Positions 11,651 to 60,300 of a stretch of 64,000 nt of DNA are shown here, piece by piece. The stretch's first letter is position 1. Each line of letters begins with the position of its first letter. Below the pieces are notes generated by a model. That model worked only from the letters and a program-made list of their open reading frames with translations. It had not been told where the DNA came from and did not search any database. The DNA comes from Emiliania huxleyi CCMP1516 (taxonomy: Eukaryota). The position numbers and the translations under genes were made by a program. The stretch is taken from NCBI RefSeq assembly GCF_000372725.1, contig NW_005202427.1, positions 1,152,459 through 1,216,458 on the forward strand, in the 5' to 3' direction.

Positions 11651-12440
11651 GCGCACAACACCACAGGTCTCATCTCAGTCTAGCGACCTGCCTCCAGCTT
11701 CTCCACTGGCAGTCTCTCGCTACCACAGGCACACTGACAGGGGCGGCCGAGGCACACGCCGAGGGTGGCAGGGGCGGTGTGGCACCCTGAAGTTTTTTCT
11801 CTTCCGTTCCCGTTTGCGACAGGTTCCCCTCCGGGTTCCCCTCGGAGCTCGGTCAACCTCGCCGCCACGACTTGGTCAGTTGGTCTTAGCTACACACAAC
11901 ACCACAGGTTGTCCTCCAGCTTGTGCCCGCCCGCGGCGCGGCGAGCCTCTCTGCGCACCACTCCAGATACGGGCTCTCGCCCTGGCCGCGCGCCGCCCTT
12001 TTGCCTCGCGACACAGCGCACGTCAGCCGGAGCGCTCCGCCCGACGCCCGCGCTGACCTTGACCCTGTTCCCCCTGCCTCGCTCCGCAGGTGTGGGTCGA
12101 CGGCGCGGAGCAGCGGCCGCCCGCCCGCGTCCCCCGCCCCCGCCCGCCCGCCCCCGCCACGCCGCTGCATGCGCGCCGCCGCCCCGATGTCCCACACCCT
12201 CGCCGGCGACGCGCCGTCTCTGCGCGCCGCCGCCTCCTCCCCTCCACCCACACTGCGCCGCCTGCGCTTAGGCGCGTCGCTCGAGTGCCCTCACCGCCTG
12301 CCCCTCTCCGCTCGCAGGTGCGGCCACGGCCGGTCGAGCAGTCCCTCGCGCCGCGCCCCCATCCTGCCTCCGCCTCGCCACAACCACCCCGCTGCCCGAC
12401 CGCGCGCGCCCTCGCCCTCGTAGAGTCAACTCACGCGGTC

Positions 12441-13685
12441 ATGATGAAGCTCTACCTCGCGATCGTCGCGTCGCTCCTCACGCCCGTCCAGTCGGCCCCG
12501 ACCCGCCGCCAGTTGGGCATCTCAGGTGACACTTGCGATGTTACGGCGTGCGAGACGGCGTGCGCGGCGGTTGGCAATCCGTATGGCCCGTACGCTGGTC
12601 GCGGATCGATGGAGACTTGTGTCCATGGCGACTCCGCGTACGGGCCACAAGTCGGATGCAAGGGCTGTGCTTACGTCGATGATGGCCCCTCCACCCCGCC
12701 CGCCCCCTCCACCCCCCCGCCTTCGCCGCCCGCCCCCCCCTCCACCCCTTCGCCACCTTCGATGCCGCCCTCCCCGTCCCCTCCGCCTTCTCCGCCGCCG
12801 TCCCCCGGCGCCCCCATTGGTGGCGGCGGCGGCGGCGGTGGCGACGATCCCTGCTTCTCCCGCGGCACGTACGCGTGCCGCCTCCTCGACCCCAAGGCGC
12901 GCTCCCTAGGCGGCGAGTCGGACTAGCGAGGCGCCCATTCACACCCGTGCCCCCCCCCCCCCCGGCCCCAGGCCCCCGCCGCCGAGGCGTACGCCCAGTG
13001 CTTCCTCGGTGCCGCCGGCGACGCGGCGACGCGCGCCCCCATGTCCGAGCTCGCCGCGGGCGACACCGTGCTCTCCGACGCGGACACCGCCGCGCGCGTC
13101 GTCGTCAACCAGCACAAGGTCGAGGACGGCAAGGCCTCGCTCCTCATCACGCTCACGCACGCGCGCGGCTCGCTCGCGCTCACGCCCGACCACGTGCTCG
13201 AGCTCGACGGCAAGTTCATGCCTGCGCGCGAGGCGCACGTCGGCGCGGCCCTCTCCAACGGCGCGGTCATCGAGGCCATCTCGCACTCGCGCGGCGGCAT
13301 CATCAACCCCATCACCGTCACCGGCAAGATCCTCGCGGCGGCCGCCACCGGCGAGCCCGTGCTCGCGGCGACGGGCAACGAGTGGCTCGCCGACGTGATG
13401 CTCTCGGCCTACCCGAAGTACACCCTCTCGTACGCGCTCGCGGCCGCCTTCCCCGCCGCGGTGCAGGCCTACTACGACGGCGCGCTCGAGCCGCTCTTCA
13501 CCGCGGCCGTCCCGCACCTCACCAAGATCAAGGCCGCCGCGCCGGCGCCGCTCGTCGGCGTCATTCTCGTGGCGGGCGACGCGGCGCTCGCCACCGGCTT
13601 CGCCGCCTACTCGCTCGGCCTCAAGGGCGTCGCCACTCTCGCCGTGATCGCCGTGGCGGCCGCGCGCAAGGGCAAGAAGCCGTGA
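12441..13685 (+). CDS. Secreted/membrane protein with Hedgehog-type Hint autoprocessing domain; intron 12897-12971 (GC-AG)
   Basis: Signal peptide MMKLYLAIVASLL, Cys-rich module, Pro/Gly linker, then DDP|CFS, MSELAAGDTVLS, LTPDHVL, INPITVTGKILA and a hydrophobic C-tail. Confidence 0.82.
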
Positions 13686-13749
13686 GGCGCGCGCGGCCTG
13701 GCCGTCGGAGGTTTGTACAGCCGCTGGGCGGCGCAATAGTTGCCTCCAC

Positions 13750-13958
13750 GTATCGGAGAGAGGAGAAGGGAGGTGCAAGGGGCGTGCTCTCGTTCTGGTA
13801 GTCCGCCTGCCTCCAGCATGTCGTATCGGAGAGAGGAGAGGAGAGGTGCAAGGGGCGTGCGCTCGTTCTGGTAGTCCGCCTGCCTCCAGCATGTCGGATC
13901 GGTCGGAGAGGAGAGGGGTGCAAGGGGCGTGCTCGTTCTGGTAGTCCGCCTGCCTCTG
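13750..13958 (+). repeat. About 60-bp tandem repeat x3 in 3' region (second copy about 16475-16682)
   Basis: GGTGCAAGGGGCGTGCTCGTTCTGGTAGTCCGCCTGCCTC repeated. Confidence 0.9.
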
Positions 13959-14288
13959 AGCCTGACGGCGCGATCTGGTCGTTTTGTACATCGTATGTAA
14001 ATGGTGAGTGCCACCTGCCACTGAGCACACGTTGTATTGTGTAAAGAGATAGTTCAGAAACGAGATATAGAGTTCTGAGTTGTAGCAACAGCCGGCAGGG
14101 GCGGTCACTTGGAGCACTTGGAGAGTGCAGTCGGCAACCACCAACCTCACATCCAGGGCCGGGGAGCTTGAGGAGCGCACCCAGCGAGCCGGATGATCGG
14201 CATCGGGCTACGGGCAGGAAAGCCCTGACCCCTAGGGGGGGGTGCGCGTTCGCAGGGCAAGGGCCTTAAAGTAAACATGGGTCTCCGA

Positions 14289-14487: not shown

Positions 14488-15168
14488 GGGTCTCCGAGGG
14501 TTGGCTCCGCGCGGGGCGTCACATTTTTCTTCAGGTTCCCGTTTGCGACATGTTCCCCTCGCTCGAGCTCGGTCAACTTCGCCGGGCATCGCCTACACCA
14601 CTTGGTCTCTACCACAACGCCACAGGTCCAGCTTGTGCCCGCCCCGCCCGCGGCGCGGCGAGCCTCTCTGCGCACCACTCCAGATACGGGCTCTCGCCCT
14701 GGCCGCGCGCCGCCCTTTTGCCTCGCGAGACAGCGCACGTCAGCCGGAGAGCGCTCCGCCCGACGCCCGCGCTGACCTTGACCCTGCTGCTCCTGCCTCT
14801 GCTCCGCAGGTGTGGGTCGACGGCGCGGAGCAGCGGCCGCCCGCCCGCGTCCCCCGCCCCCGCCCGCCCGCCCCCGCCACGCCGCTGCATGCGCGCCGCC
14901 GCCCCGATGTCCCACACCCTCGCCGGCGGCGCGCCATCTCTGCGCGCCGCCGCCTCCTCCCCTCCACCCACACTGCGCCGCCTGCGCTTGGGCGCGTCGC
15001 TCGAGTGCCCTCACCGCCTGCCCCCCTCCGCTCGCAGGTGCGGCCACGGCCGGTCGAGCAGTCCCTCGCGCCGCGCCCCCTCATCCTGCCTCGCCAGCCA
15101 CCACGCCGCCGTGCGACCACACCCTACCACCGCTTGCGCCCCCCGTTCGCAGGTCAGTGAACGCGGTC

Positions 15169-16355
15169 ATGATGATGCTTACCTCCGCGATCCTCGCGCT
15201 CGCCGCCTCTGCCGCCGGCCAGGAGAAGCCCGGCCACGAGCTCCTCTTTGCCGACATTCCGGCGGACGTGTGCTGGAGCCAGACCGACTGCGAGCCCGCG
15301 GTGAAGGTCTTCAAGGACGGCACCGTGATGTTGGGACTCTACCACTTCTTCTGGGGAGGTACGACCCATGCATTGATGGGCATGTACAACAAGGCTGTGG
15401 CCGGATCGACCCACACGGCGATGGGCATGTGGAACACGGTTATGGCCGGATCGACCCATACGGCGATGGGCATGTGGAACACGGTTATGGGCGGAATGGC
15501 CCATACGGTGATGGGCTGGAACAACACGATTATGGGCGGGACGGCCGCGACCGTGATGGGTTACAAAACGGTCGCCACTGGAGGTATGGCCCAGACCGCG
15601 ATGGGTTACGAGACGAATGCGATTGGCATGGCTTCTTTGTCGACGGGTTACAAGACGGCGGCGTTTGACATGGCGGTTTCGATGGGAAACGGCACGTTGG
15701 CAAAGGGCATTTCCTCGGTGCCCCCCCCCCCCCCCCCCCGCCCCAAACCTGGGGCCCCACACCTCACCCCCTGCCCGCCTTTTTGCCCGCTGCAGGTCTC
15801 GATGGGCCCCAAGACCCAAGCAGAAAGTTTTGCGGAGGTTCCCCCCCCCCCCCCCCCCCACCCCCCTTCAAGCAGCGTGGCCTGCACAGCTGCCCTAACC
15901 TCCCCTCCCCTCCCCTCTCAATGAAGGTAGTGATCGGTCAGTTCAACGAGCGCAATCCCATCGGCGAATGCGACCAGTTTGGACCCGGCAAACCCTACCC
16001 GGGCCCGGCGCCCGAGGGTTGCGCCTCGAGGGGCTGGCCCGAGCGCCTCGAGGGTTTCGAGATGGACATCAACGGCACGATGGTCACGGTGCCCGCGGCG
16101 TGGCAAGGCTACGATGCGGTCTTCCGCGTGGGTGTCGGCACCGGCGAATCCGACCGCAAGGACGCGATCACTGTGTACAAGAACGGCACCGTCGTCATCG
16201 GTGACCTCCGCACCCCCGGCCCTGGCCGCCGCCTCTCCGCCTCCGACGGCGCGCTCGAGAAGAAGCTCGAGGCGACGGAGAAGAAGCTCGAGGCGACGGA
16301 GAAGAAGCTCGCCGCGCTGGAGGCGGCAGTCATGGCGCTCACGCGCAACCCGTGA
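15169..16355 (+). CDS. Secreted protein with YadA-head/Hep-Hag-like repeats and C-terminal coiled coil; introns 15718-15795 and 15838-15926
   Basis: Signal peptide, 14-aa repeats (T.MG..NT..GG, AMGYETNAIG, SMGNGTLAKG), VIGQFN, VFRVGVGT.ESDRKDAITVYKNG, (LEATEKK)n. Confidence 0.75.
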
Positions 16356-17442
16356 GAGCGCTGGCCTGGACGTGATCGCCGTGGCGGCCGCGCGCAAGGG
16401 CAAGAAGCCGTGAGGCGCGCGCGGCCTGGCCGTCGGAGGTCTGTAGCCGCTGGCAATAGTTGCCATGTGTATGGGAGAGAGGAGAGGAGAGGTGCAAGGG
16501 GCGTGCTCTCGTTCTGGTAGTCCGCCTGCCTCCAGCATGTCGTATCGGAGAGAGGAGAGGAGAGGTCAGAGGTGCAAGGGGCGTGCGCTCGTTCTGGTAG
16601 TCCGCCTGCCTCCAGCATGTCGGATCGGTCGGAGAGGAGAGGGGTGCAAGGGGCGTGCTCGTTCTGGTAGTCCGCCTGCCTCTGAGCCTGACGGCGCGAT
16701 CTGGTCGTTTTGTACATCGTATGTAAATGGTGAGTGCCACTGAGCACAGCCTGTATTGTGTAAAGAGATAGTTCAGATACGAGATATAGAGTTCTGAGTT
16801 GTAGCAACAGCCGGCAGGGGCGGTCACTTGGAGCACTTGGAGTGCAGTCGGCAACCTCACATCCGGGGCCGGGGAGCTGAGGAGCGCACCCAGCGAGCCG
16901 GATGATCGGCATCGGGCTACGGGCAGGAAAGCCCTGACCCCTAGGGGGGGGTGCGCGTTCGCAGGGCAAGGGCCTTAAAGTAAACATGGGTCTCCGAGGG
17001 TTGGCTCCGCGCGGGGCGTCACATTTTTCTTCAGGTTCCCGTTTGCGACATGTTCCCCTCGCTCGAGCTCGGTCAACTTCGCCGGGCATCGCCTACACCA
17101 CTTGGTCTCTACCACAACGCCACAGGTCCAGCTTGTGCCCGAGATAGAGTTGTAGCAACACAAAAACATAGAGATAAGAGAACGCCAGCAACCCTATGAT
17201 TCATCATTCAACCCAAACAAGGGATGGGAAGGAGGACAGGGCCTCACAGAGGATTACGCCACAGTGTCGTTTGAGTCGACAGTAAATCTCCCACAGCCCA
17301 CGTAAATCCGTCTTTTTCAGACACCCGGAGCCCTCCGCGGCCGCTTCTACGCCGGCGAAGCACCATCAAGCTGCTGTACGGCCCCGGCATCGCCTCCCCT
17401 GGCTTAGCTCTCAGTCAAGATATTGTGCACATGGGTGGCCTC

Positions 17443-22291: not shown

Positions 22292-22432
22292 GGCGGGCGC
22301 GCCCGCGGCACGTGCTCACGTGCGGCCTCGCTGCCGCTTCGCCGGGGGCGGCCCGGAGCACGCACGCGTCTAGCAATCGGGGGGAGGCGCGAGGGGCCGC
22401 CTCTCGCACCGACTTGCCTGGAGGCGGTGCAG

Positions 22433-22475
22433 GTAAGGTTAGGTAAGGTAAACGTCTCCACACACACACAAAGTC
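22433..22475 (-). mobile_element. 5'-truncated copy of (TTACC)n-tailed SINE/LINE-end family
   Basis: Minus strand reads GTGTGTGTGGAGACGTTTACCTTACC, matching 44341-44382. Confidence 0.75.
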
Positions 22476-22499: not shown

Positions 22500-23267
22500 C
22501 TGTGGTGCACAACCTCGCCCTCACCGCCGACGGCAGCGTCTGGAGCGCTGGGGCCATATGGACACCGGGGCAAGCTGGGCCACGGCGACGAGCAGAACCA
22601 GCTGCTGCCGAAGAAGATCGAGGCCTTGGCGGGTCAGCGCGTCCTCGCTGTGTCAGCAGGGCAGGAGCACAGCATGGCAGTCACCGCCGACGGCGCCGTC
22701 TGGAGCTGGGGCTTTGGCGAGGATGGCAAGCTGGGCCACGGCGACCTGCAGGTCCAGCTGCTGCCCAAGAAGATCGAGGCCTTGGCGGGGCGGCGCGTCG
22801 TCGCTGCATCCGCTGGAGCGCACGACAGCTTCGCCATCACCGCCGAGGGCGGTGTCTGGAGCTGGGGCTGGGGCCACTCCGGCCTGGGCCACGGTGGCGT
22901 GCAGAACCAGCTCCTGCCCAAGAAGATCGACGCCTTTGCTGGCCAGCGCGTCGTCGCTGTGTCGGCTGGAGACATCCACAGCATCGCTCTCACCGCCGAC
23001 GGCAGCATCTGGAGCTGGGGTGAGGGATTCTTTGGCCCGTTGGGCCACGGCGACCAGCAGATCCAGCTACTGCCGAAGAAGATTGAGGCCTTGGCTGGGC
23101 GGCGCGTCGTCGCCGTGTCGGCTGGATCCACCCATAGCCTCGCCTTCACCGCCGATGGAAGCTTCTGGAGCTGGGGCCATGGAGCCTATGGTCGATTGGG
23201 ACAAGGAGAAGACCTGTCGAACCAGCTGCGGCCCAAAAAGATCGAGGCGTGGCGGCTGGGGCAGTGA
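22500..23267 (+). pseudogene. RCC1-repeat paralog, 5'-truncated, with a degenerate first repeat
   Basis: About 4.5 RCC1 repeats similar to 6575-7792; begins mid-repeat without ATG context, just after a retroposon tail. Confidence 0.7.
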
Positions 23268-32103: not shown

Positions 32104-33715
32104 TTATTGCGGCGCTGCGTGTGTGCGGGCGCCTCGGGCGCGACAGAGCGGCGAGGTGTCGGCGCGGTCGGTGGGGCCCGAGGCGGCGCTCGTTGCGCTC
32201 CCCAGCGGCCACGGCGGCCGGAGGCACGGGTGCTGCGTGCGGAAGCGAATAAGGACCGGCGTGAGAGCGTCCCGCGTCGCCGCCTCGAAGCCGGGCAGGA
32301 GGGGTCGGCGGCTGGCGCGCTCGCGGACGCTCTTCGACTTGCGAGGGTGGAAGGTGAGGGAGCCGTCTGGTCCGGGGTAGCCGCTCGCGCGCCAGTCGTG
32401 GCGCTGCAGGCCCGCGTGCGCGAGGACCCGGTTGAGGAGGGAGGAGGGGCCGGAGGCGAACTCCTATAGCAATCGCTTCATTAATTAATCGCTCGTTGGA
32501 GGAGGGAGGAGGGGGCCGGAGCGCGGAGGAGGCGAGCTCCTCGGTGAAGCCGACGAGGAGGGCGTCGGGCGGGAAGGCGGCGAGCCAGGCGGAGATGACC
32601 GCGGAGTAGTCGAGAACGAGGGGGATGGAGCCTAAGGTAAGGTAAGGTAAGGTAAACTTCTCCACACACACGAGGGGGATGGAGCCTGTGCGGAGAGAGA
32701 CGCAACACGGGCCGAGGTGCGGGGGCGGGGGGGTGCAGGCGAGAGGTGGCGGGGCGTGAGAGAGGCGGAGTCAGTGCGGGGCCACAAGACTCAGTCTGCG
32801 AGTCAGAGAGCCTCCACATCCCAGCCACACCTATCTCAGGGCAGGGTGCGCGCGCGCGTGTTGCGCCTGGGGCCATCCTCAGGGCGTACAGCGCCTCGGC
32901 GTCCCTCGCCACCGCGACTGGCCGCAGCGGCGAGCCGCCCGCCGCACCGCCCGGCTCGAGCCGCAGCAAGCCGGCCCCCGCGGTCAGCATCGACTCGTAG
33001 TCGCGCTCGACGGCGCCGCCGCAGCTCGGCAGCGGCGGCCTGCGCTGGCGGCCGGCCTGGCGGAGGCAGTGCACGAAGCGCGATCGGACGAGGGCGACCG
33101 GATCGCGGAGCAGGAGGACGAGCCGCACCTATGGGGAATATGGGGAGATATGGATATGGGGGAGATGTGAGGCAGCCGGCGGTGCGTCATGATGGAGAGC
33201 ACGCTCGGCATCAGCCGGCGCATGAGGAAGGGCACGTGCCGCTCGATGCCGTTCGCGACGCGGCTCAGGTTGTGCTGTGGCCGCGCGTAGCCGGGCGACT
33301 TTTCAAAGGTGAGGACCCGGCCGATGTGCTCGCGCGGCACGGGGAAGCGGGCGGCGTACTCGCTCCACGACGTGCGCAAGGCGGCCTCGAGGAGCGAGCG
33401 GTGGTGGACCGGGCCGACGACCCCGCCCGGCATCGCGCGAAAGATGCCGTGGTTGAAGTACTGGACTTCGCGGTCGGTGGAGGAGGAGAGGTTGGGGTGC
33501 AGGCTCAGCCAGCCGCGCAGCTCGTCGGTGCCCGCCTTGGCCATCCCAACGCAGACCAGCGACGGCAGGCAGGAGACGGCGGGGACGGTGGCAGGAGACG
33601 GCGTGCTCCCGCCGCTCGGGAGCGTGATGCAGGTGCCCGAGTCAACGGCGCCGGCGTCGTACGCGCTGGTGGCGTCAGAGGGAGAGAGCAGAGGACCGTG
33701 CGTGAACTTGGCCAT
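32104..33715 (-). CDS. PAPS-dependent sulfotransferase (heparan-sulfate-sulfotransferase-like fold), multi-exon
   Basis: 5'-PSB VGMAKAGTDEL..WLSLHP, EVQYFN, FEKSPGY, 3'-PB LVLLLRDP, FTEEF..GP..LLNRVLAHAGL. Start uncertain. Confidence 0.8.
32634..32669 (-). mobile_element. Truncated (TTACC)n-tailed retroposon flanked by an 18-bp duplication
   Basis: ACGAGGGGGATGGAGCCT at 32616-32633 and 32670-32687. Confidence 0.85.
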
Positions 33716-40572: not shown

Positions 40573-43500
40573 ATGGGGCCCCCCTTTCACGATGGTGGCG
40601 CAGACTCTGGCCACGTCACCAGCATCAAGGAAGGGTTTGGCTTCATCCGACCCCTCAACGACCGGCGGACGGGCGGCGGAGGTCTCTTCTTCCACTTCAG
40701 CGCTCTCGTCGGCCGTGACGTCCCAGTCGAGGGCGACGAGGTCTCCTTCTCGGTCGAGCTCGACCGCCGCTCAGGGCGCGAGGCAGCCAAGGCGGTGACC
40801 ATCTTGCCGCGCGGGACGCTGCCTGCGCCCGCGAGGGCCGTCACCGTCCGCGCCGTCGTGCAGAGAGAGTTGCGCGGCGCTCGTGGCGGTGACGGCTACG
40901 GCGGCCGTCTCGCCGTCCTCAAGGGCGACGGGCCTCCCGCCGAGGGTGACGCCGCTGCTGGGGATGGCGGCCAGGACGATGACGAGCAGACAGAGGTGGT
41001 GTCCTTTGACGCCCGCGGCTGCGAGAGGCCCAGCGCTCTCCACGTCGGCGATCTGGTCGAGTGCCGCTTGATGAGCGTGGCGGGCTCGCGCCAGCGCGCG
41101 GCGTCGCGCGTGAAGCTCATCGAGGCAGGCGGCGGGCTGCCGCGCCAGAGCGGGCGGGTGGCCTCGCTCAAGGACAAGTTCGGCTTCCTCCGCACGGCCG
41201 GCAAGGCTGCCGACCTCTTCTTCCACCTGTCCGAGGCGCCGCGCGACACTTCTCTAGACACTTCCTAGACACTTCCTAGACACTTCTTCCACCTGTCCGA
41301 GGCGCCGCGCGAGGGCGGCCCGCGCCGCGTGGGGGGCGACACTTCCTAGACACTTCGCGGACACTTCCCTGTAGGCGCCGCGCGAGGGCGGCCCGCTCCG
41401 CGTGGGGGACGACGTGTCCTTCTGCGTCGTGCTCGACCCGCGCTCGCGCAAGGACGCGGCGACGAAGCTGCGCCGGCTGCCCGCCGGCTCCGTCGCGCTC
41501 GAGCAGCTCGGAGAGGCTCGGCTGCGCGGCGTGGTGACGCGCTGCCTCGCCGGCAGCGCGAGCCTGCACCGGCTGCTCTCGCGCGCGGAGAAGGGGGCGC
41601 ACGGGGGGATGATCCGGCTCGAGGGCGGGGCGGCCGGGCGCGGGGAGGGCGCGGCCGAGGAGGCTGCGGCCGAGGATGCTGCGGCCGAGGAGGGCGCCGC
41701 CGAGGGAGGGGCGGGGAAGCTCAGCTTTGGGCTGGACGACGTCTGCGGCGAGTCGCGCGCGGCGGGCCTGTACGAGGGTGACGAGGTGAGCTTCAGAGAG
41801 GCGACCGACGCCGCCACGGGCGCGGTGGGCGCTGCCGACGTGCGGCTCGAGGCGCAGAAGGTGAACCGCGGCTTCGTGCTCTCGCTGCGCGACGGGCACG
41901 GCCTGCTGCGCGGCGAGGCGGGCGGCGCCCCGCTGAGCTTCGCCGCGTCGTCGCTGCCTGGGGTGAGGCCGCGCGACGAGGTGTGGAGCACTAGTACCGG
42001 CGGTAGGAGGCACCCTGAATTAATTGAGTACTTATTCATGAATGACTGCGCGACGAGGTGGAGTACCGGCGGGCGAGCGACGCAAAGACGGGCAGGCCGG
42101 CGGCCGCACAGCTCCGGAGGCTGCCTGCAGGCTCCCTCCTCCCAGCCAATGAATTAATTACTACCCGCACAGCTCAGCTCCGGCGGCTGCCTGCAGGCTC
42201 CCTCGTCCTCGAGTGGGTCTCTCCGCGCTGGTGGGAGGCCGTCGTCCGGCTCGCGCCCGCGGCGCCGCGCGGGCGCGGAGGCGGCGCCAGAGACGGCGCG
42301 GCGCAGAGCTGCGGCGCCGGCTCGGTCGAGCTCCTCGGGCCGCTGCCGCTTGCCGCTAGCGCTGCCGCCGCACCGCTTGCGCGTGCCGCCGGCGGGTCGC
42401 ACGAGCCCGCGCAGCGGTCCGAGTCGGACAAGCCCATCAACAATTAACTAATTGATTGATTAATTTAGGTCCGACTCGGACAAGCCCATCCCCCTCGAGC
42501 TCGGCCAGGCGCTCGCCCCGCCGCTCTCGCCACGCGCCGGCGAGGAAGTCGGCGCGGGCCTGGCGACCCCTTCGGCCGAGGCGCGCGCGGCGCTCGAGCG
42601 AGTCGATAGCGTGGCTGGCATGGCGGGCACCGTCCTGCCGCTGCCTCAAGCCGACGCAAAGTCGCGCGAGCAGCTGGTGCCGGGCGACATCGTCTCGCTG
42701 CTGCTGGCGGTCAGCGCGCGCGACGGCTCCGTGCGGCCCACGCGGGCGACGTACGAGCGGTGCGCGGACGGCGCGGTGGAGCGCGGCGTCGTCGTCAACG
42801 TGAAGGAGCAGTTTGGCTTCCTCAAGGCGGAGGCGCGCGCCTCGCCCGTCTTCTTCCACTTCTCGCAGCTGCCCGACGGGGTGCACCGGCTGGCAGCTGG
42901 TGCAGAGTTCGAGTTCGTCGTGACCGCCGAGGACGCGGCCGGCCGGAGGAAGGGCCGCAGCGTGGCCATCCGGCTGCGTTCGCTCGCTCCGGGCACCGTC
43001 GCCTTTGAGGATTGTCTCCTCGAGGAGGCGAAGGGGACTGTCGTCGCGGGGGCCGAGGCGGGGGGCGAGGCGGGGGGCGAGGCGGGGGCCGGGGCGGGGG
43101 GCGAGGCGGGGGCCGAGGCGGGGGCCGAGGCGGGGGCCGAGGCGGGGGGCGAGGCGGGGGGCGAGGCCGACTGCAGCCGCGAGACGATCGGCGACGACGC
43201 AGACGGAGAGGACGCCGCGAAGATCTCGGTGCTGCTGCTCGATAAGTTCGAGGGCGAGCGACTCAGGCTTCCGATCGACCGTCGGCGGCAGGAGCAGGCG
43301 CTGCGTGGCGCCGTGCCCGCTCTCGGCACGACCGTCACGTCGCGGCTCTGCCGCCGCCGGCGTGACGGCGCGCTCGTCCTGGTCGACTCGACACCGGTGC
43401 CGATCCGCGGCGTGGTCAAGGCCGTCTCAGGGGGCCAGGGCAGCATCCGCGCTACGGACGCGCTGCCCCAAGCTGCCGTCGATGCTGCCGCCGCCGCACG

Positions 43501-44050: not shown

Positions 44051-44247
44051 GCTGGCCTCTGAGCGTATGAGCGTAATCCTACCACCTGTCACCAAGCGCG
44101 AGGGTCGCGCATGGGTTAGACAGGGCTATTTTGTTGCGAATCCTCAGCAAAACTCTTTTCTGCCGGCGGGTATGCCGGGGGTCCAGGGTGGGGAGGGTGT
44201 CGGTCCGCCCTGCGTCCCGCTGGCGCAACCACACACACACACACACC

Positions 44248-44382
44248 GCTCACCCACGCGCACTGGGCCTTGCACTTTGAATGCCGTGGGGCTCCTGTCG
44301 TCAGACGTGGAGACGCGAGGGTTGCCCCCCCTTGCCCCACCACCTCGTGTGTGTGGAGAAGTTTACCTTACCTTACCTTACC
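44248..44382 (+). mobile_element. (TTACC)n-tailed SINE-like element
   Basis: GCACTTTGAATGCCGTGGGGCTCCTG...CTTGCCCCACCAC..GTGTGTGTGGAGAAGTTTACCTTACCTTACC, homologous to 47117-47267 (-) and 48318-48471 (+). Confidence 0.8.
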
Positions 44383-44602
44383 TCCCGCGGCGGCCGCCCC
44401 GCCGGCCGCCGTTATTACGGCTCTAGCGTTACCCGGGGAACGCTCATGCCCGTCGCCGAGGTCTGGCAAGACCGAGAAATTCGATTCGACGCGCCCATCT
44501 CGCAGCTCGCGCTTCGCGCCGGAGAGGCAGCGGCGGACTCGAAAGTCGCTCGCACAAAACGCGGATAGTCAATCGGTCGCAACGTGGCAACAGGTGCCGA
44601 TC

Positions 44603-47116: not shown

Positions 47117-47267
47117 TAAGGTAAGGTAAGGTAAGGTGAACGTCTCCACACACACAAAGTGGTGGGGCAAGGGGGGCGACCCTCGCATCTCCACACCCGG
47201 ACACGGGCAGGAGCCCCACGGCATTCAAAGTGCAAGAGCACCGGCCCGGTGCCGTGCGTGGGTGAGC
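47117..47267 (-). mobile_element. (TTACC)n-tailed SINE-like element
   Basis: Reverse-complement homology to 44248-44382. Confidence 0.8.
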
Positions 47268-48238
47268 AACCTACCTGCATGCACCCACTCCCTCCCTCCC
47301 AGACACAGGACCCGCACACAACCCCCATAGCGTCGGAGGACGCCACCGTCGCCTAGACTCCCCTGCGTGCTCCCCGTCTTGTAGCCTGGCGTCGTCCCAG
47401 CGTTTCATAAAAAAAAGCATTGCGTGCGCACGTCCAGTCTTACCCCTCTCTGGGCGACATTGCAATACGTCTGCACTGCGTGCCGCGCGCAACTTATGAT
47501 CGCTGCCGATGCGCCAGCACCTCGGCTTTGCCATCATGCGTCATTGCTTGTTACTGTTTCCAGCCTTACGCTGCTGCTCTGGGTCGCAATCTCTGGCGAC
47601 AGCACCACCGCGCCTCAAAACTTGAGACCAGCGACTGCGCCGCCGACAAAGCTCTGGCTGTTCACCGACGACGCGCCAGAAGAGGCCCCAGAGGGAGACG
47701 TACAGTTTGGCATCAATTTTGACACCGCGGCGTTCAAGCAGAATCTGCTCGACACGCTTGGCCTTGGCGCGCAACATGCTTAGATAGACACCCCCACGCA
47801 CGATGCTTTCACTCTCCCGCCTCCCTGTCCGCCAGGCTGGCTCGGCGGGGGGGGCAGCGGCCACGAAACCAGCGAGGTGAACACAGACAACCCGATTTGG
47901 AGCGGAGGCTTCGACTTGGGCTGACTCTCCACAAACTTTGAACCAGTGGGCGGGCCCGGCAATGCCCTCTCGCTCGTGATGCTTTGCTGCAGGACTTGCT
48001 GCAGGTCTGCCTACTGTGGCAGCCGCAGTGGCTGCAGAGGCGCGAACTCCTGCGCGTGCGCGCATGCTACAGCTCGAGCGGTCAGAGCGGAGGATCGTCA
48101 CTCATGAGTTGAAGGGTAATCTAGTCCGTCTCTCTCTTGGTACCCCCCCTGCACACGAATAGAAAGGGGCTCTCCGCGTTGGTCTTGCAATCCTGGTACC
48201 CTTGTTTGTACCCTTGGACAGCGGTAAAGTTGTCGCAG

Positions 48239-48274
<36 letters not shown>

Positions 48275-48317
48275 CACACACACAACACACACACCCACAC
48301 ACACACCTCACTCTCAC

Positions 48318-48471
48318 ACACGCGCACTGTCTCTGGGCCTTGCACTTTTCAATGCCGTTGGGCTCCTGTCGTCTAGACGTGGAGTTGCGACAGAGTTGCG
48401 AGGGACGGTCGCCCCTCCTTTGCCCCAACAACCTTGTGGAGAAGACAAGTCTTTACCCCTTACCTTACCTT
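48318..48471 (+). mobile_element. Diverged (TTACC)n-tailed SINE-like element, preceded by (CA)n
   Basis: Homology to 44255-44382. Confidence 0.7.
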
Positions 48472-51355: not shown

Positions 51356-54300
51356 ATGTTCGCTTGTTTATCTCTCTCTCTCTCGGCTCATGCATTTTCT
51401 GGAGGCCCCCGCCAGCTGCAAAGCTGGCTGTTCGGCTGGCCAGAGAGCGACAGCAGCAGCAACGCGACCAGCAGCAACGCGTGGGATGGGTCACTCATAG
51501 ACGTCGACACACCGCTGGAAGAGCTCGAGACGGTCGGCCTTGGCGATGGCGAGAGCTACCGGCTGGTCATGTCGGACGAGTTTGAGACCGAGGGCCGCCG
51601 CTTCAGCGAGGTCTCGAGCGTCTGAGCGCCCTCGCTTCCACCAGCTCGTCCCGTCAGCTGTCTCGCTCGCCGTCTCAGGTGGACCGCGACCCGATCTGGA
51701 CGGCCGTCGCAAGGCACGACCCGACGAACGGCAACCTGGCATACATGACGCCGCAGATGGTGAGCACTCACGCGGGCGCGCTCGAGATCTACACCACAAA
51801 CACGGGCTTCCGCGCCTCGCGGTACGCCTCCGGCTCCGTGCAGTCGTGGGAGAAGGCTTGCTTGCAGGGCGGCATCGTCGACGTCTCCTTCTCCCTGCCC
51901 GGCGAGCCGGGCGCGCCTGGCGTCTGGCGCGCACCCCTCCGCCGCCCTCCACCGCCTGGCACTCTGCTCCTGCCGCCAGCTCACCGGAGGCGCTGCCACG
52001 CCACGCACCGCCATCTCGATGCTCACTCACTCTGCTTCTGTCTACGCCACGCCAGGCCCGCCATCTTGTCACAGGCCCGCCATCTGGATGCTCGGCAACC
52101 TCGGGCGGGCCACCTACCCGCTCTCGAACGATGGCCTCTGGCCCTTCTCCTTCGGCGCGTGCGACCGGTCTCTCGGAGGCCAGGCGGCACGCTAGGGCTC
52201 GGCGCCATAGCCTCGGCGCCCTCCTGGAACCTTCCTGGAACCTTCCCATCAGCTCGGCACCCTCCACCACAACAGACACACGAGCCGACTCGCCACAGCA
52301 CACACCGCTACCCCGTGCCCGCCACTGCCCGCCACTGCTCGCCTCTGCCCCCCCGCGGGACTCTCCTCCCCCGCGGGACGGTGCTGTCGGCCTGCTCGGA
52401 CCGTAACACAGGAGCCTTCTAGGAGCCTTCTAGGAACGTTCTAGGTGCTGTCGGCCTGCTCGGACCAGCCAGCGCGCGGCTCGGGGCTGCGGCCGTACCA
52501 GGGGCGAGGCGTGCCGGAGGTGGAGCTGCTCGAGGACATGTCGCAGGACATGTCCGCGATATGTCCGAGACATGTCACATAGGCGTGCCGGAGGTGGACT
52601 TGCTCGAGGCGCGCCCGTGCGCCGACATCGCCGCCGCCAGCGACAGGCCCGCGCTCGCGGTGGCGCACAACAACCTCACGTGCGGCATCACAACCTTCCA
52701 GGCGCAGCCTCGGGCATCGCAGCCAGAGCCCCGCAGCAGCAGCCAGAAGAGCCCCGCGCCACGCCGCCGCCCAGGCGCCGCCGCCCCCCCGGGTCTCACG
52801 CCCAACCTCTGTGGCGACAGGTTGCGCCACGCCTGCCGGGCCGGCTCCGTCCGAACCACGGCTCCTTCCCGTCGGCGCGCCGGCCTTGGTACCCCAACCT
52901 GACTTTCGGCCGCCGCTCCGAGATCGACGCCCTCTGGTACGGAGGGGACCACTTCGACTCGCTCGGCGCCTACTTCCCGCTCTCTCCCTCCTACCACACC
53001 CCGCCCCGCGCACCGCACTCCGGCGCCGGAGCCTACTCCGGCGCGGCCGCGGCGGCGGAGGCGGCCGGAAGCTACGGCGGCTTCGGCAGCTCGCTCTTCG
53101 ACGCGAGCGCCGCTCTCTCCCCCCGCCGCCTCGGCGTCTCTCGAGACGTCACCCGGCGTGCCGGCGGGCGTAGGCGGGCTTCTTCGGCGCGCCGCCCGCC
53201 GACGCCCTCCCGAGGACCGACCGCGGCCTTTCGCACTTTCGGTTCGAGTACGAGCCGGGCGCGGACGGCTTCATGCGATGGTTCCTCGACGGCGCGCGCA
53301 GCCCAGCACGAGCCCGCCCACGCCCACGCGTCCTAGAAGTTTCCCAGAAGGTTCCCAGAAGGTTCCCAGAAGGTTCCTAGACGGTTCCTGGACGGTTCCT
53401 GGACGGTTCCTGGACGGTTCCTAGAAGGTTAGAAGGCACGAGCCCGGCCACGCAGTCCCGCACTCCCCAGCCACGCACACTCCCGACCCGGCCCCGCCCG
53501 CCGCCGCCCTCGTCGCACGCGCGCCCTCGCCGCCCCGTGCCGCCGCCCAAGCCGCCCTCTCCCCTGCCCGCAGGATCGCTCGTCTTCGAGGCGACCGGCG
53601 AGTCGCTCCGCCCGCGCCGCGTCCCCGGCGGCGGGCACGTCGGCCAGCGGCTCGTGCCGGAGGAGCCGATGCCCCCCATCGTCTCTCATCGTCTCTCATC
53701 GTCTCTCATCGTCTCTCATCGCCTCTCCGCTGTACCCCGTCACAGGAGCCTATGTACCTCATCATCTCGGCCGCCGTCTCGCGCGTCTTCTCGGGCAGGA
53801 TCGACCAGGCCATCTTCCCGACAGTCTTCCGCATCGGCCACGTCCGCTTCTACCAGCGCGCCAGCGGGCGGCAGCGCACCTCGTGCTCGCCCCCCGACCA
53901 CCCGACGGCGGGCTGGATCGCGCAGCACTGGTGGGCAAACGGCAAGCAGGCGCCCCCCTCGGTCGACAACCTGCTCCGCGCCTCCGTCCTTCTCTCGGGC
54001 TGCGTCGCCGCACTCGGCGCCCTCGCGCTGCTGCTGAGTGAGGAGCACGTCCGCCTCGCGCTCGCACTGCTGTTCGGCGCCTTCTTCTGCGCCGCGCTCG
54101 CCTCCGCCGGCCTCGCCCGCTACCTCGGCGTCTCTCCCGACGACGCGTGGCTCGGGCCGCAAACCGCGGGCGGCGACAGCGCCACCAGCTCGCTCACGCT
54201 GTCGGCCGGCGTGCCGCTGCGCAGCCACGTCTGGAGCTTGTCTGGAACCATCTAGGACCCTTCTTGGAGCTTTCTAGGCGTGTCGCTGCGCAGCCACGTC

Positions 54301-57300
54301 TGGAACTTGTCGGCGGAGCGGGCTCGGGCGGCGTCGCTCGCGCGGTGCGGCTCGCCGAGAGGGAGCCGAGACATGCCCGACGCGTAGCCGAGAGGGGTCC
54401 GAGAGGGGTCCGAGAGGGGTCCGAGAGGGGTCCGAGAGGGGTCCGAGAGGGGTCCGAGAGGGGTCCGAGAGGGGTCCGAGAGGGGTCCGAGAGGGGTCCG
54501 AGAGGGGTCCGAGAGGGGTCCGAGAGGGGTCCGAGAGGGGTCCGAGAGGGGTCCGAGAGGGGTCCGAGAGGGGTCCGAGAGGGGTCCGAGAGGGGTCCGA
54601 GAGGGGTCCGAGAGGGGTCCGAGAGGGGTCCGAGAGGGGTCCGAGAGGGGTCCGAGAGGGGTCCGAGAGGGGTCCGAGAGGGGTCCGAGAGGGGTCCGAG
54701 AGGGGTCCGAGAGGGGTCCGAGAGGGGTCCGAGAGGGGTCCGAGAGGGGTCCGAGAGGGGTCTTGTCGCGCGACTCTCCGATCGGGTGGGGCGGCGACGG
54801 TTCCGCGGCGCGAGGCAGGAGGTGCCTAGAAGGTGCCTAGAAGGTGCATAGAAGGTTCCGCGGCGCGAGGCAGGAGGTGCCTAGAAGGTGCCTAGAAGGT
54901 GCCTAGAAGGTGCCTAGAAGGTTCCACGGCGCGAGGCAGCCTGGCCGTGGCCGCAGGCTCTTTGCCGATCGCCTCGTCTACCTCGCTTGCGTCGTCGAGG
55001 CGGCGGTGGTGGGCGGCTTGCTGCTGACCATCCTCTCGGAGCTCACTCTCTGCCTGGCGACCGCCTTCTCCGTCTCGCTCCTCGCGCTGCAGGCGAGCCG
55101 CACGCACCGCACCGCCTCGCACCGCACCGCACCGGACCGCACCGCCTCGCACCACCTCGCACCACCTCGCACCGCACTGCCTCGCACCGCACTGCCTCGC
55201 ACCGCCTCGCACCGCACCGCCTTGACTCTGGCCGCCTTGACTCTGGCTCCGTCGGGCAGCAGGCGAGAGCGCTGCCCCGCCTGCTCTAGGAACCTTCTAG
55301 GAACCTTCTAGGAACCTTCTAGGCGAGAGCGCTGCCCCGCCTGCTCGTGGCTCTCTTGGGCGCGCTTGCCGCCAGGGAGGGCGGGCAGGACGAGGGCGGC
55401 GGTCGGGTCGGCTCTCTGTCCGCCGCCGTTCCGCTGCCGCCGGTCGGGCCGCCGCTTCCGCATCCGCGCGGCTGGTCGGCGGGCGAAGAGCTCTCCCTGC
55501 TCCTCTTCCCCCTCTTCCTCTTTGTCGCGCTCGTCTCGGGCTTGGCTGCCATTCACGTCCGCAAGGCGTTCCTCGAGGCCGCGACGGCGTTGTGCGGCGC
55601 GCAGCTGCTTTGGCTCGGCGCCGCAAGCTTGGCGGGCGGCGAGGCGATGCTGGACGTGCGGCACTAGGAACCTTCTAGGAACCTTCTAGGAACCTTCCGA
55701 GAGGGGTCTAGGCGATGCTCGACGTGCGGCACGCCGTCGAAGGGCTCGCGGGGTCCGGCGTGCAGGGCGACCTCGGCAGGAGCTCCTCGCCGTGGGCTGC
55801 GCCGGTGGTGGTCGCCCTTACCAGCGTCGCCTTGCTGCGCCACGCCCGCTGCCTGCGCCGGGGCAGCTGGACCCGCTCCCCTTCTAAGTCAACTGTTAAT
55901 TAACTGTTAATTAATGTTGAATTACTACTAGGCAGCTGGACCCGCTCTGCCGCGGCCTCGGTGTGCGTGTGCTGCAGGCCAAGGTCCGAGGCGGGGCTGT
56001 GGTCTCTGGTGTGGCGGGCGAGCGGTCAGCTCTGGCAGGAGCTGGCGGATGACGTCGACGACGAGGAGGACCCCGCCGCCAGCCCGTCTGCAGCGGAGGC
56101 GCGTCGCGGTCGACGTCTGCCAGGCGCAGCCGTCGGTCGAGCGCTGGTGGCTAGCCACCGCCCGCCGGCACGGGCAGAGGCGGCCACGAAGGGCAGCCTG
56201 TCCGGTGGCGGCCACCTCCTCGCGCCGGCTCCTCGCAGCCAGCCGCCAGCGGGGGAGGCGCGCCGCTCCCCGCTCGTCTCCGCCGCAAGCTCGGCTGGCC
56301 TCCGCCGGGTCGTCTCCGCCGAAGCCTTCACCGCCCGGCCGGCCCCTTGGTGGGGGGACCCTACGGCCCCTTGGTGGGGGGACCCTACGGCCCCTTGGTG
56401 GGGGGACGGCTCGCCGCCGGAGGAGAGGCGGTGGCTGCCGCCGCTGCAGCAGTGCACCGCGGTGGATGCGAGCGGGGCGCTCGGCAGTCCCGTGGTGAAG
56501 CAGCTCTGCGCCGTCGCCGCCGCGTTTGAGGCCGACTTCGGCTTCCAGCGCCCGGTGGTGTGCAACCAGCTCGAGCACTTGCTCCGGCTGCTCGCCGCGA
56601 GAGCGGCGCGCTTACCCTTCTCCGCCCCCGAGCGTGCGGCGCGCGCCGCCGACTCGCTCCATGCGCACCTCTTTGCGTCGTACTTCACCTGGTGCGAGCA
56701 CGTGCGCGCCGAGCCGCGCTGCTCTCCCGCAGCAGCGCGGGCGAGGCACGGGCCGGGCGCTGCGGGCGGGGCGGCCGAGGCGGGCGGCGAGGAGGCGGGC
56801 GAGGGCGGGCTCGCCGAGGCGGAGGCTCGCCGGGCAGAGTGCCTGCTCTACTTGCTCGTTTGGGCCGAGGCGGCAAACTTGCGCCACGCATCAGAGGCCG
56901 TCTGGTGGCTCTTCCACCAGCTCTCCGACTTGGCGAAACCGCTGCCGCGCCCCTTCGCGCTGGCGAGCGTGGCGCCGCTCTACGCGTCGCTCGTCCACCT
57001 CTTCTGCGAGCGAGCGCACCCACTCAACTACGACGACGTCAACGAGGCCTTCTGGCGACCCGACTGCCTCGGGTGGAGCCTCGAGGGGAGCGGCGCCGGC
57101 AGTGCCGCCGCGCAGCTCCGCGGGCTGGCAAAGGAGTACCGCGAGCGCCGCTCCTGGCTTCACATGCTCGGTGCGTTCGAGCACGTCTACTTTGCGCACT
57201 GGATCATGCTGCGGCTGATGCTCGGCGCGACGCTCGGCCTCAACACCTGCATCGCCGCCGAGTTCGGCGTGCCCTGCGAGGCGGGCGAGGAGTCGGACGC

Positions 57301-60300
57301 CGTGCTGGCACCAGGAACCTTCTAGGAACCTTCTTGGAACCTTCTAGGCGGGCGAGGAGTCGGACGCCGCGCTGCGCGTGTTGCAGTTCGAGGCGACCCT
57401 CGTGGTGGACGTGCAGGCGTACCGCGTCCTCTCGGGCTTGCTGCAGCTGTGGGCGCGCTTCCCCACCTGCGACCCGCCTGCCAAGCTCGACGCGGTGCTG
57501 CGCGTCGCGCTCGACCTGCTCCTCTCTCTCGCGCTCAACGTGGCGCTCTGGTTCTCGCTCCGCGACCAGCACCTGCACCACTGGGCGATGGCGCTGCTGC
57601 TCTCGATCGCCGTCTTCGTGCGGCCGACCCTGTCCAGCCTGCGCTTCCTCGTGGTGCGGCCGGGCGGCGGCGGCGGCGGCGGCGGAAGCAGTGGTCAGCC
57701 CAGTCTGGGGCGCGAGCGGCTGCTCTCGCTGTTTGGCATCGAGGTGAATGCACTGCGATTGCACTGCTCTCGCTGTTTGACATCGTTAATTCCCTGCGAA
57801 TTGCCTGCGAATTGCCTGCTAACTCTAACTGCTCGCTGTTTGGCATCGAGGTTGCCAACGGGCCGCTCCCCGCGAGGCACGTCCGGCCGACGAGCTGGTG
57901 AAGCACTCAATCAATGGACTGATGAGTGGCTGCTACTAACCATAGGCACGTCCGGCCGACGAGCTGGAGCGCGCTCGCTTTCTGGCTGACGCTGTTCAGC
58001 GTGCACTGCCTGCTGGTGCAGCACTACATCGCGGACGCGCTCGTCGTCGACACGCTCGGCCTGCTCTACTCCTACTTTGGGCGAGCACCTAGAAGGTTCC
58101 AAGAAGGTTCCTAGAAGGTTCCTAGGCCTGCTCTACTCGTACTTTGGGCGCTCGCTCACCGGCAGCTCCGGCATCGGCCTCGGCCAGCTGTTTGTGCTGC
58201 TCCTCTGCATCTGGGTGCCGGTCATCCTCTTCTTCCACCGGGAGGAACCTTCTAGGAACCTTCTTGGAACCTTCTAGGTGCCGGTCATCCTCTTCTTCCT
58301 CGTGAGCTTCTCGCTCACCTTCACACTCTGGGTGCTCGTCGTCGGGCTCTGTCGCGGGCTCGGCTCCCTCCGCATCGCACCCGAGCTCGGCCTGCCGCAG
58401 CTGCTCGCCGCCGACCGTGGACAGAACCTTCTAGGACCCTTCTTGGAACCTGCTAGGCCTGCCGCAGCTGCTCGCCGCCCACTTTGACCCGGCGGCCGAC
58501 CGCTTCGAGCAACGCTGGCTCGCCAGCCGTCCGGCCCGGCTGCCCCCCAGCCCGGTCCCTGCCCAGCGAGGGTTGCGGGCGAGCCCGTCCTTTGCACCGA
58601 CTGCGCGCGGGGAGGGTGGCCGTGGCTCGCCAAATGTGATTGCCGAGGAGGCTGACGAGGCGGAGGAGACGATGATGGCGGCGGCGGCGGAGGAGGAGGC
58701 GGAGAAAGAGCTTGCGGAGGAGGAGGCGGAGGAAGAGGCTGCGGAGGAGCAGTTGCTGGGCGAGCTCGCCAAGGGGGGGGCGTGGGCCGTGTCGGCGGGG
58801 GGGCGCTCGGTCTCGCTCCCAGCAGTCGCCAATGGGTCGCGAGACGGCGCCCTTCCGCCAGACGAGGACGCGCCCGCGGACTTGTCGGGGCTACGGCCGG
58901 CCGCCCAGTCCGGGCGCCCCTCCCGTGGTGGGACATCTCCTCACGGCCCGGCTCCTGTGAGGCGTAGGCTGCTCGGTCGGCTGCCTGCGCGGGGCGGCTG
59001 GGGCTTTGCGCAGTGTTGGAACACGATGCTCCACGAGATGCGGCGGCAGGATTTGGTCGACAACTCCGAGGAGACCCGGCTGCAGTTTGCGATCGTGCCG
59101 CGCGCCGTCCACCCGCCGCCGCCCGCTGCGGTCAGCGCCGCCGCCAGGGCGTGGCAAGAGCGGCCGCCGGTGCCGGGCAGTCTGCCGCCCCTGCCGCGCG
59201 CCGAGGCTGCGCCCGACGGCACGGCATTGCCGCTGCTTCTCCCGCCGCCGCTCGGGTCTCTCAAGCGCGCGCTCAGTGCGCTCCTCGCGGGCTGCCCCGT
59301 CGAGTCGCTCCCGACGCTCTGCCGCCTCTCGCTGGCGGGTGCGGCCGACATCGCGATGGCAGTTGTCTGGCCGCTGCTCGGCGCCGCGCACCAGCCCGAC
59401 GTGGCGCTCGCCCTCCGAGCCCTCGCCGCTGTCGTGCCCCCGATCGCGCCAGCCACCGATGCGTCTGCCGCCGGCTCGGCCGGCCAGTCCCGCCCTTGCG
59501 GCGCGCTGCCGCCCGGCCTCCGCTCGGAGCGGGTGCTCTACGGGCTGCGCAAGGCGCTACAGCGGTGCGAGGCCTCCTCCCTCCACGAGCCGCCTCGGAG
59601 CCTCTCGGGACCTGTCTGTAGGCGCTCGTCGAGCGAATTCGTTCCTGCGAATGAGCACTGATAGACCACTCATAGAACTGTCTCAGGCGCTCGTCGAGCT
59701 GTGCGAGGCCATCTTCGCCATGATCGTCGCCTTTGATGGCCGCGCCGCCCGAGGCGTCGCTAACCCTAACCCTAACCCTAACCCTAACCCTAACCCTAAC
59801 CCTAACCCTAACCCTAACCCTGACCCTAACCCTAACCCTGACCCATACCCTAACCCTAACCCTAACCCTAACGCCGCCCGAGGCGTCGCGGCGCCTAACG
59901 GCTGATTAACTGTACTCAACTACTACTAACCACTCAGTAACTGTCTCGAGGCGACGCGGCGCCTAACGGCCGTCTCGCCAAGCGGTCGGCGAGCGTAGCG
60001 TGCCTGGCGTCGGCCGCATCGCACCCGCACGACAACGGGCTCGCCGCTAGACCGGCGGGCGGCGCCGGCGGGCTAGAGGGCAGCAACGCCGCGCAGGCGC
60101 CAACGGACGGCCCGCTCGAGTCGGGACAGAACGGTGGGGGTGGACTGCGAACGACGGAGCGGCCGCAGATGGGCGACGGCGGCGGCGGCGGCGGCGCCTC
60201 GGCCGGCTCGGGCGTCGGCTTGCGGCACGCGCTGCGCTCGCGCTCCTTTGGCGATTCGCTCTCGAGCTTGTCGCGCGTCGTCTCGCTCAAGGGGCTCTCG

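Follow-up and report, generated by a model that had tools for sequence, protein, structure and literature searches.

The window, a 64-kb stretch of Emiliania huxleyi CCMP1516 DNA, contains on its minus strand a four-exon sulfotransferase-like gene encoding 408 aa, whose intron-2 acceptor is the site of an insertion (Table 1). The spliced protein belongs to a cluster which includes E. huxleyi CCMP1516 EOD34376.1, named sulfotransferase domain-containing. The whole protein matched Pfam Sulfotransfer_3 with an E value of 1.3e-4, which is below the curated cut-off, and exon 1 alone gave a heparan sulfate 3-O-sulfotransferase match with an E value of 0.015. Single exons searched against Pfam resulted in no match. 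The family assignment, made from sequence similarity, is weak but consistent. The 5' half of intron 3 was found to be a decayed copy of the exon 4 start, i.e. intron 3 is an old echo intron, where echo refers to a filler bracketed by two copies of the same word.

Table 1. Positions of the host gene, the insertion and the element copies in the window.
Feature	Position	Strand	Comment
Exon 1	33203..33715	-	sulfotransferase-like gene
Intron 1, 74 nt, GT-AG	33129..33202	-	10-mer repeat at its 3' end
Exon 2	32867..33128	-	
Intron 2 as spliced, 235 nt, GC-AG	32632..32866	-	RNA contigs X11, X12, X13
Intron 2 of the empty allele, 181 nt	32686-32866	-	ends at the first AG
Copy 1 of the duplication	32670..32687	-	original acceptor AG 32687-32686 and 16 nt of exon start
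Filler, 36 nt	32634..32669	-	3' end of the dispersed element with (TTACC)n tail
Copy 2 of the duplication	32616..32633	-	new acceptor AG 32633-32632 and start of exon 3
Exon 3	32540..32631	-	
Intron 3, 76 nt, GA-AG	32464..32539	-	76-nt RNA joint, spliced in 4 runs
Exon 4 to stop codon	32104..32463	-	
Longer element copy	44230..44383	+	subfamily matching the filler
Copy of the second subfamily	47119..47341	-	
Diverged element copy	48290..48471	+	
Short 5'-truncated element copy	22431..22467	-	

At the intron-2 acceptor, an 18-nt word starting with AG at 32687 is repeated exactly at 32633. The two copies are separated by 36 nt and the distance from AG to AG is 54 nt. The final 6 nt of copy 1 overlap the element sequence, and the filler together with these 6 nt matched 44340-44383 with 97.7% identity over 44 nt. 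The original prediction described the site as an 18-nt duplication around the 3' end of a (TTACC)n element with CCTCGT microhomology, and the exactness of both copies and the element match confirm this description. The 5' overlap of 6 nt compares with 0-4 nt in the 8 other scorable copies among 16 duplicated ones. In the presence of a common allele, 32615 A>C (X1, X2, X4, X5, X13 and part of X6), the duplication is 19 nt and the overlap 7 nt long.

Several other origins of the structure were considered and rejected. In shifted-position controls, a repeat of at least 9 nt was detected in 1/242 and one of at least 12 nt in 0/242 cases, which rules out a chance repeat. An assembly artefact was ruled out by the contigs of X1 and X2, which contain both junctions. 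The insert is not a tandem genomic duplication at AGGT, as 36 of the 54 nt derive from the dispersed element and not from local sequence. A DNA transposon was rejected since inverted ends were not seen and the duplication length is variable.

The (TTACC)n-tailed element

The element was detected at at least 120 loci in one metagenome scan, 80 of those being listed with long flanks, and its tail motif had at least 126 matches, including 4 in the window. The window itself contains five element copies. Two subfamilies were distinguished, the longer of which was traced about 330 nt upstream with no clear 5' end reached. The tail motif had 0 matches in each of viral_contigs and genome_contigs, and no locus of host exon 2 was found in viral_contigs.

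Enough flank and a distinct 3' side made 57 of the 126 matches scorable. Their matched lengths ranged from 16 to about 305 nt, which corresponds to a variable 5' truncation, and junction-anchored duplications of at least 8 nt were detected in 18 of the 57 vs 4 of 242 shifted controls. Locus L034 was dropped as a tandem-copy artefact, resulting in 17 duplicated copies. The median duplication of the element was 10 nt and 15 of the 17 were 8-14 nt long. The outliers were the present site with 18 nt and locus L005 with 24 nt; they are the two shortest inserts (36 nt each) and both lie in genes at AG|G. The first duplicated base was T or A in 13/17 copies, and a tail-target overlap of 1-5 nt was determined in 12/17.

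The common 3' end with a tandem-repeat tail, the dispersal in high copy number, the target-site duplications of variable length and the existence of an empty site are characteristic of non-LTR retroposons. The element behaves like one, in line with the retroposon origin claimed in the original prediction. The pattern of the duplications fits target-primed reverse transcription by an enzyme of the RTE/CR1/L2 type, judged by analogy with the microsatellite-tailed RTE-type retroposons, for which the available part of PMC6007223 gives the T/A pattern of the first duplicated base. Target-primed reverse transcription is treated in PMC2912911, in the available part of which L1 duplications of about 15 nt are ordinary and were studied up to 30 nt. 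Against the proposed insertion and its splicing, no partner LINE was found on the short contigs: after removal of 4 duplicates or host-exon ORFs from the 106 listed upstream of the element, 0 of the remaining 102 matched a reverse transcriptase or endonuclease Pfam family. The transcript ORF P0004, which joins the tail to exon 3, also counts against it. The Rfam search of 4 element loci gave nothing at the gathering score and sub-threshold matches only. The folding of the longest element copy resulted in z = -1.83, which is uninformative.

For the element in general, the predicted preference for AG|G was not supported. Of the 17 duplications, this site included, 5 contain AG|GY on one strand or the other vs 2.5 expected (P = 0.09), a tail A followed by GG was observed in 6 of 121 distinct 3' junctions, which is not significant, and a coding-sense AG|G position in 2/17 duplicated copies.

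Some further observations were made on the element copies. In L034, L095, L098 and L010 the element is tandem or nested, with one copy inserted directly behind the tail of another. A 281-aa ORF without Pfam match (L026 3-848) ends just upstream of the longest element copy; it is probably a host gene, since other loci lack it. The short tail copy of the window adjoins the second of two RCC1-repeat arrays (6737-7733 and 22504-23255), which are about 75% alike and have a relative in L056 (Pfam RCC1).

Splicing and allelic states at the acceptor

The 54 nt are in frame and stop-free, a point missing from the original prediction, so that the predicted absorption of the insertion into the intron is not readable from DNA alone. 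In RNA, a 235-nt skip joining 32866 to 32632, i.e. to the second AG, was determined in 3/3 runs from 2 studies, as expected from the prediction. The 181-nt joint to the first AG was found in none of the 8 runs examined. The empty allele would yield the same mRNA as the spliced insert, and RNA cannot separate the two. The insert is probably spliced out as intronic; this reading gains weight because 0/5 DNA-bearing runs showed the empty site and because both 32615 alleles occur in spliced RNA and are tail-linked. One exon start was observed in the five junction-spanning spliced cluster members (P0005, P0006, P0011, P0013 and P0014) and likewise in P0002 and P0016. The 18 residues were missing in 4/4 aligned distant homologues. 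At 32622, X5 has a substitution in copy 2 which replaces Pro with His; the spliced protein P0016 has His and could phase which copy is exonic.

Relative to the second AG, the filler carries four branch-point-like pentamers of the yTnAy type at -22, -17, -12 and -7. Pyrimidines make up 76% of the tail. Two more AGs are located inside the filler, so the use of the second acceptor requires a branch point downstream of both. In the original intron, the nearest yTnAy motif is at -72 from the first AG. The branch-point consensus yTnAy may not be that of E. huxleyi. Read antisense (32634-32655, plus strand), the tail is a tandem array of donor-like sites of the donor consensus AG|GTAAG.

The first AG might have stayed the main acceptor in the tail alleles, which would give a protein longer by 18 residues. 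The open frame of the 54 nt would permit this, the 75-nt period of the X5/X6 allele described below is also a multiple of three, and the first AG retains its original pyrimidine tract (72%). Such exonisation is highly improbable in view of the missing 181-nt joint and of the single exon start in all junction-spanning spliced proteins. RNA-type data in its favour are P0004, in which the body and tail of the element run directly into exon 3 and intron 3 has been spliced out, and X6 record 28, in which the tail is also joined to exon 3. P0004 could stem from a chimeric assembly or from a longer allele, or alternatively some RNA retains the tail. According to the available part of PMC4028052, GC donors are the majority in E. 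huxleyi and intron retention is pervasive, the latter arguing against exonisation as well.

At least four structural states were determined at this acceptor; they form an unrooted allele chain. X1 and X2 carry both junctions and are of the window type. In X4, the tail 3' junction is present and 34 letters past copy 1 misfit the window, which indicates that the X4 insert is longer or different. The contigs of X5 and X6, from two studies, are unbroken through the site and have 21 extra letters. Mismatches in the region of the filler number approximately 10-11, and three substitutions immediately precede the second AG. As read from the alignment record table and not from sequence letters, this allele has a 57-nt filler and a 75-nt period without an intact tail. 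In a simulation with 5 scoring schemes, the X5/X6 records fitted either an unrelated filler of 57 nt or the retention of no more than about 12-18 tail letters, and under no scheme were they compatible with the retention of at least 22. X6 additionally holds the window-type 3' junction; the tail 3' junction was present in 4/5 DNA-bearing runs (X1, X2, X4 and X6).

The fourth state is empty. P0001, an ORF on unspliced sequence leading from intron 2 through exon 3 to intron 3, has a gap of exactly 18 residues at the position of the insert. The empty allele that a target-site duplication predicts was thus looked for and found, being represented by one contig and one predicted protein; it could also be a later collapse between the repeats. 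The 54-nt skip of an empty-site joint was detected in none of the 5 DNA-bearing runs, which is no proof of absence since contigs drop rare variants. Protein searches found neither longer proteins with exon 1 nor shorter ones with P0001 residues 1-48, hence the fillers of X4 and X5/X6 are not readable through ORFs.

The unrooted chain also permits an order in which the duplication predates the tail. A 75-nt echo of the X5/X6 type would have arisen first, a retroposon end would have swapped its filler via the 6-7-nt overlap, and the empty state would be a collapse. The 75-nt period is within the echo range and the X5/X6 filler fits an unrelated 57-mer, as simulated. This order is very unlikely, since it requires two or three events instead of one, and the marker beside the first AG is common to the empty allele and the tail allele X1, where it is in the CpG state, presumably the more often ancestral one. 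The X5/X6 filler is moreover deduced from a mismatch pattern, its letters being unseen.

Probable mechanism of the insertion and possible relation to echo introns

It is fairly probable that the filler is a 5'-truncated repeat end which was reverse-transcribed into a staggered break at the acceptor, that the echo is its target-site duplication and that the insertion was kept because it is spliceable. The duplication, the identity of the element, the allele that lacks both insert and duplication and the mRNA with a single exon start were observed; the nicking, priming and truncation steps may have proceeded as follows. A nick of the antisense strand at the acceptor AG would prime copying from the (TTACC)n tail with a 1-nt overlap, and a second nick 18-19 nt downstream would lead to the duplication. 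The 6-7-nt 5' overlap might have ended the copying early or might later have deleted most of a longer insert. Due to the pyrimidine-rich tail and the branch-point-like pentamers near the duplicated AG, the spliceosome would use the second AG; intron 2 would grow from 181 to 235 nt and the allele would survive. The use of the first AG would still keep the frame open, and an identical mRNA would result from recursive splicing at this AG, where AG|GC is regenerated. Against this reading, the duplication of 18 nt is outside the usual range of the element, and a single insertion leaves the X5/X6 filler at the same site and the other 5' junction of X4 unexplained.

Survival of spliceable insertions, rather than targeting, accounts best for the location at a splice site. 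The exons of the host gene contain 8 AG|GY words in 1234 nt and the three introns add six existing junctions, so a large part of the tolerated exon-duplicating insertions should fall on existing junctions. As for the predicted link between retrotransposition and the creation or extension of introns, an insertion with a target-site duplication was supported, and its absorption into the intron indirectly, whereas the site preference and the equality of duplication and echo lengths were not.

In total, 34 echo structures were catalogued, 23 in the window (about one per 3 kb) and 11 in loci. Their duplications measure 13-40 nt with a median of 26 nt, and their periods 50-87 nt with a median of 67 nt. 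The scan resulted in 65 rows vs about 2 matches per shuffled-control replicate. The predicted agreement of target-site duplications with echo copies in length was not observed: the echo copies are longer than the usual duplications of the element, with medians of 26 and 10 nt, the Mann-Whitney p of 1e-7 being biased since the scan is blind to echoes shorter than 13 nt. Due to this blindness a filler-anchored scan was run instead, in which 32 of 115 10-11-mer arrays were bracketed by an exact repeat of at least 16 nt vs 0/108 controls; the 32 include a few longer tandem repeats. An AG|GY junction was present in the first 0-4 nt of 15/38 unanchored duplications vs 9.6% by chance (p ~1e-6); this count is more trustworthy than the 28/34 obtained for the catalogue, which is biased by the smallest-offset rule. 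The RNA check covered one echo intron, the decayed intron 3 of the host gene.

Other fillers were found in the same arrangement. At 59743-59889, an 18-nt duplication encloses about 110 nt of telomere repeats, the G-rich strand of which is on the side where extension would take place. This duplication overlaps the donor or start of the next, AT-rich echo intron (59743-59970). At 41216-41395, two consecutive 11-mer-filled echoes share the same AG|GC junction.

The second long-duplication copy of the element is located at L005 754-837, where the tail lies antisense in a coding exon of a TLC-domain gene and has a 24-nt duplication containing AG|GT. Unspliced, L005 has an in-frame stop, and the excision of 60 nt between two AG|GT restores the frame. 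By its reading frame, L005 is a candidate for a brand-new 60-nt intron. At L005 987-1043, an 11-mer-filled echo on an apparent existing acceptor has the same arrangement as 32616-32687 with another filler.

These structures could share one route with the present insertion. Complementary 3' overhangs of approximately 15-35 nt would form in a junction-locked manner at G|GY or AG|G independently of the element's endonuclease, and any available reverse transcriptase or polymerase, such as a LINE enzyme with the RNA of this element, telomerase or one with an unknown 10-11-mer template, would extend the antisense 3' end before repair. The geometry of the insertion is that of the 34 echoes, the junction excess in the unanchored duplications and the 18-nt duplication around the telomere filler point in the same direction, both long-duplication element copies match echo lengths, and repeated events per junction are seen at 41216-41395, 59743-59970 and 32616-32687. 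We nevertheless regard such a shared route as unlikely. All the structures come from genic DNA that has survived, in which insertions persist only if they can be spliced, and with an AG-ending filler the donor necessarily falls at the start of the duplication. The element overall lacks an AG|G preference, and the present site was the one picked for its echo look, which leaves L005 as the sole independent long outlier (1/16). Retroposon duplications of about 15 nt are in addition ordinary for L1, as stated in the available part of PMC2912911.

A wider version would derive tens of thousands of E. huxleyi introns, newly made or extended, from one route, namely long-staggered breaks at G|GY or AG|G filled by any reverse transcriptase. 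The (TTACC)n tail would serve as a two-way splice cassette, one strand of which offers branch points together with pyrimidines and the opposite strand AG|GTAAG donors in tandem. If it were true, 32616-32687 and L005 would reveal the mechanism of the whole class through an identifiable source of filler; it is for the present a tentative proposal, still on the unlikely side. Several reverse transcriptases filling long staggered breaks are a plausible explanation of L005, the telomere filler, the shared junctions and the junction excess in the unanchored duplications, and selection on AG-ending fillers would explain them as well.

A dense run of echoes was observed at 52380-62170, with 16 of the 34 catalogued structures, 15 of them on the plus strand, and periods of 60-74 nt. 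The filler is in each case either an array of 11-mers or an AT-rich sequence containing words similar to TACTAAC. Local segmental duplications 650-700 nt in length with 87-93% identity were also observed (11796-12474 / 14524-15203 and 13643-14288 / 16371-16997).

Comparison with known routes of intron gain

The structure at the intron-2 acceptor is a real, polymorphic retroposon insertion which extends an intron and is a variant of known routes. Intron gain via duplicated AG|GT, staggered breaks or introners co-opting target-site duplications is known from the available parts of PMC3443670, PMC4202315 and bioRxiv 2022.06.06.494994, with further accounts of these kinds in those of PMC12130899, PMC11282704 and PMC11782384. 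By itself, the insertion is a common kind of retroposon scar which is incidentally spliced out. It is of more interest as an entry point to echo introns. How introns originate is a long-standing question, and the fillers of most new introns cannot be traced to a source. In the present case the filler can be traced, the population still contains the empty and other alleles, and the structure recurs with other fillers, so a direct test of targeting against survival is possible in one species.

The element resembles the RTE/CR1/L2 LINEs and the SINEs with microsatellite tails, as presented in the available part of PMC6007223, in its tandem-repeat tail and 5' truncation, the duplications of about 10 nt, the tail-target overlap of one to a few nt and the tail-related first duplicated base. 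In contrast to these systems, neither a partner LINE nor a tRNA/5S head nor the 5' end was detected here, and the duplication of the present copy is 18-19 nt long and rebuilds a splice acceptor.

In the staggered-break intron gain of Daphnia pulex (available part of PMC4202315), direct repeats of exon ends also flank the insert, the alleles are polymorphic and parallel or secondary insertions occur at one site, comparable with the four or more states of the present acceptor. The Daphnia repeats are, however, 4-12 bp long, compared with 18-19 nt here and the echo median of 26 nt. The present filler is moreover an identifiable retroposon and the intron was extended, not created.

As in introners (available parts of bioRxiv 2022.06.06.494994 and PMC12130899), the splice sites derive partly from the duplication and partly from the element: the second AG, the one used in the 3/3 RNA runs, is part of the duplication, the empty allele giving the same mRNA. 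About 5% of the classified introner families are non-LTR according to the same parts of these sources. Introners give rise to many precisely spliced new introns. Among the 17 copies with a duplication, the present one extends an intron and L005 is a candidate for a new intron; since it mostly inserts without making introns, the element is at most an occasional introner. In the part of the PMC12130899 supplement available, three E. huxleyi CCMP1516 introner families with 6, 5 and 45 members are given, one E. huxleyi family having 10-bp terminal direct repeats and the entry "co-opt 5' carry 3'". None of these families is classed there as non-LTR, the comparison being made by table entry and not by sequence. 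They may already include some of the echo introns.

The telomere filler at 59743-59889 is similar to interstitial telomeric sequences, in which repeats are reverse-transcribed at a break, sometimes with a target duplication; telomerase insertion at breaks is known from the available passages of PMC2246262. In these passages, which are not on splice sites, the duplications are a minority, with 6/130 rodent and 4/25 primate loci.

No description of the (TTACC)n element or of 20-30-nt exon-start duplications in E. huxleyi was found in a literature search which left out most subscription journals and the 2013 genome paper. New here are the at least four states at one acceptor, the candidate intron of L005, the reading of the tail on two strands, and the telomere and 10-11-mer fillers in identical structures.
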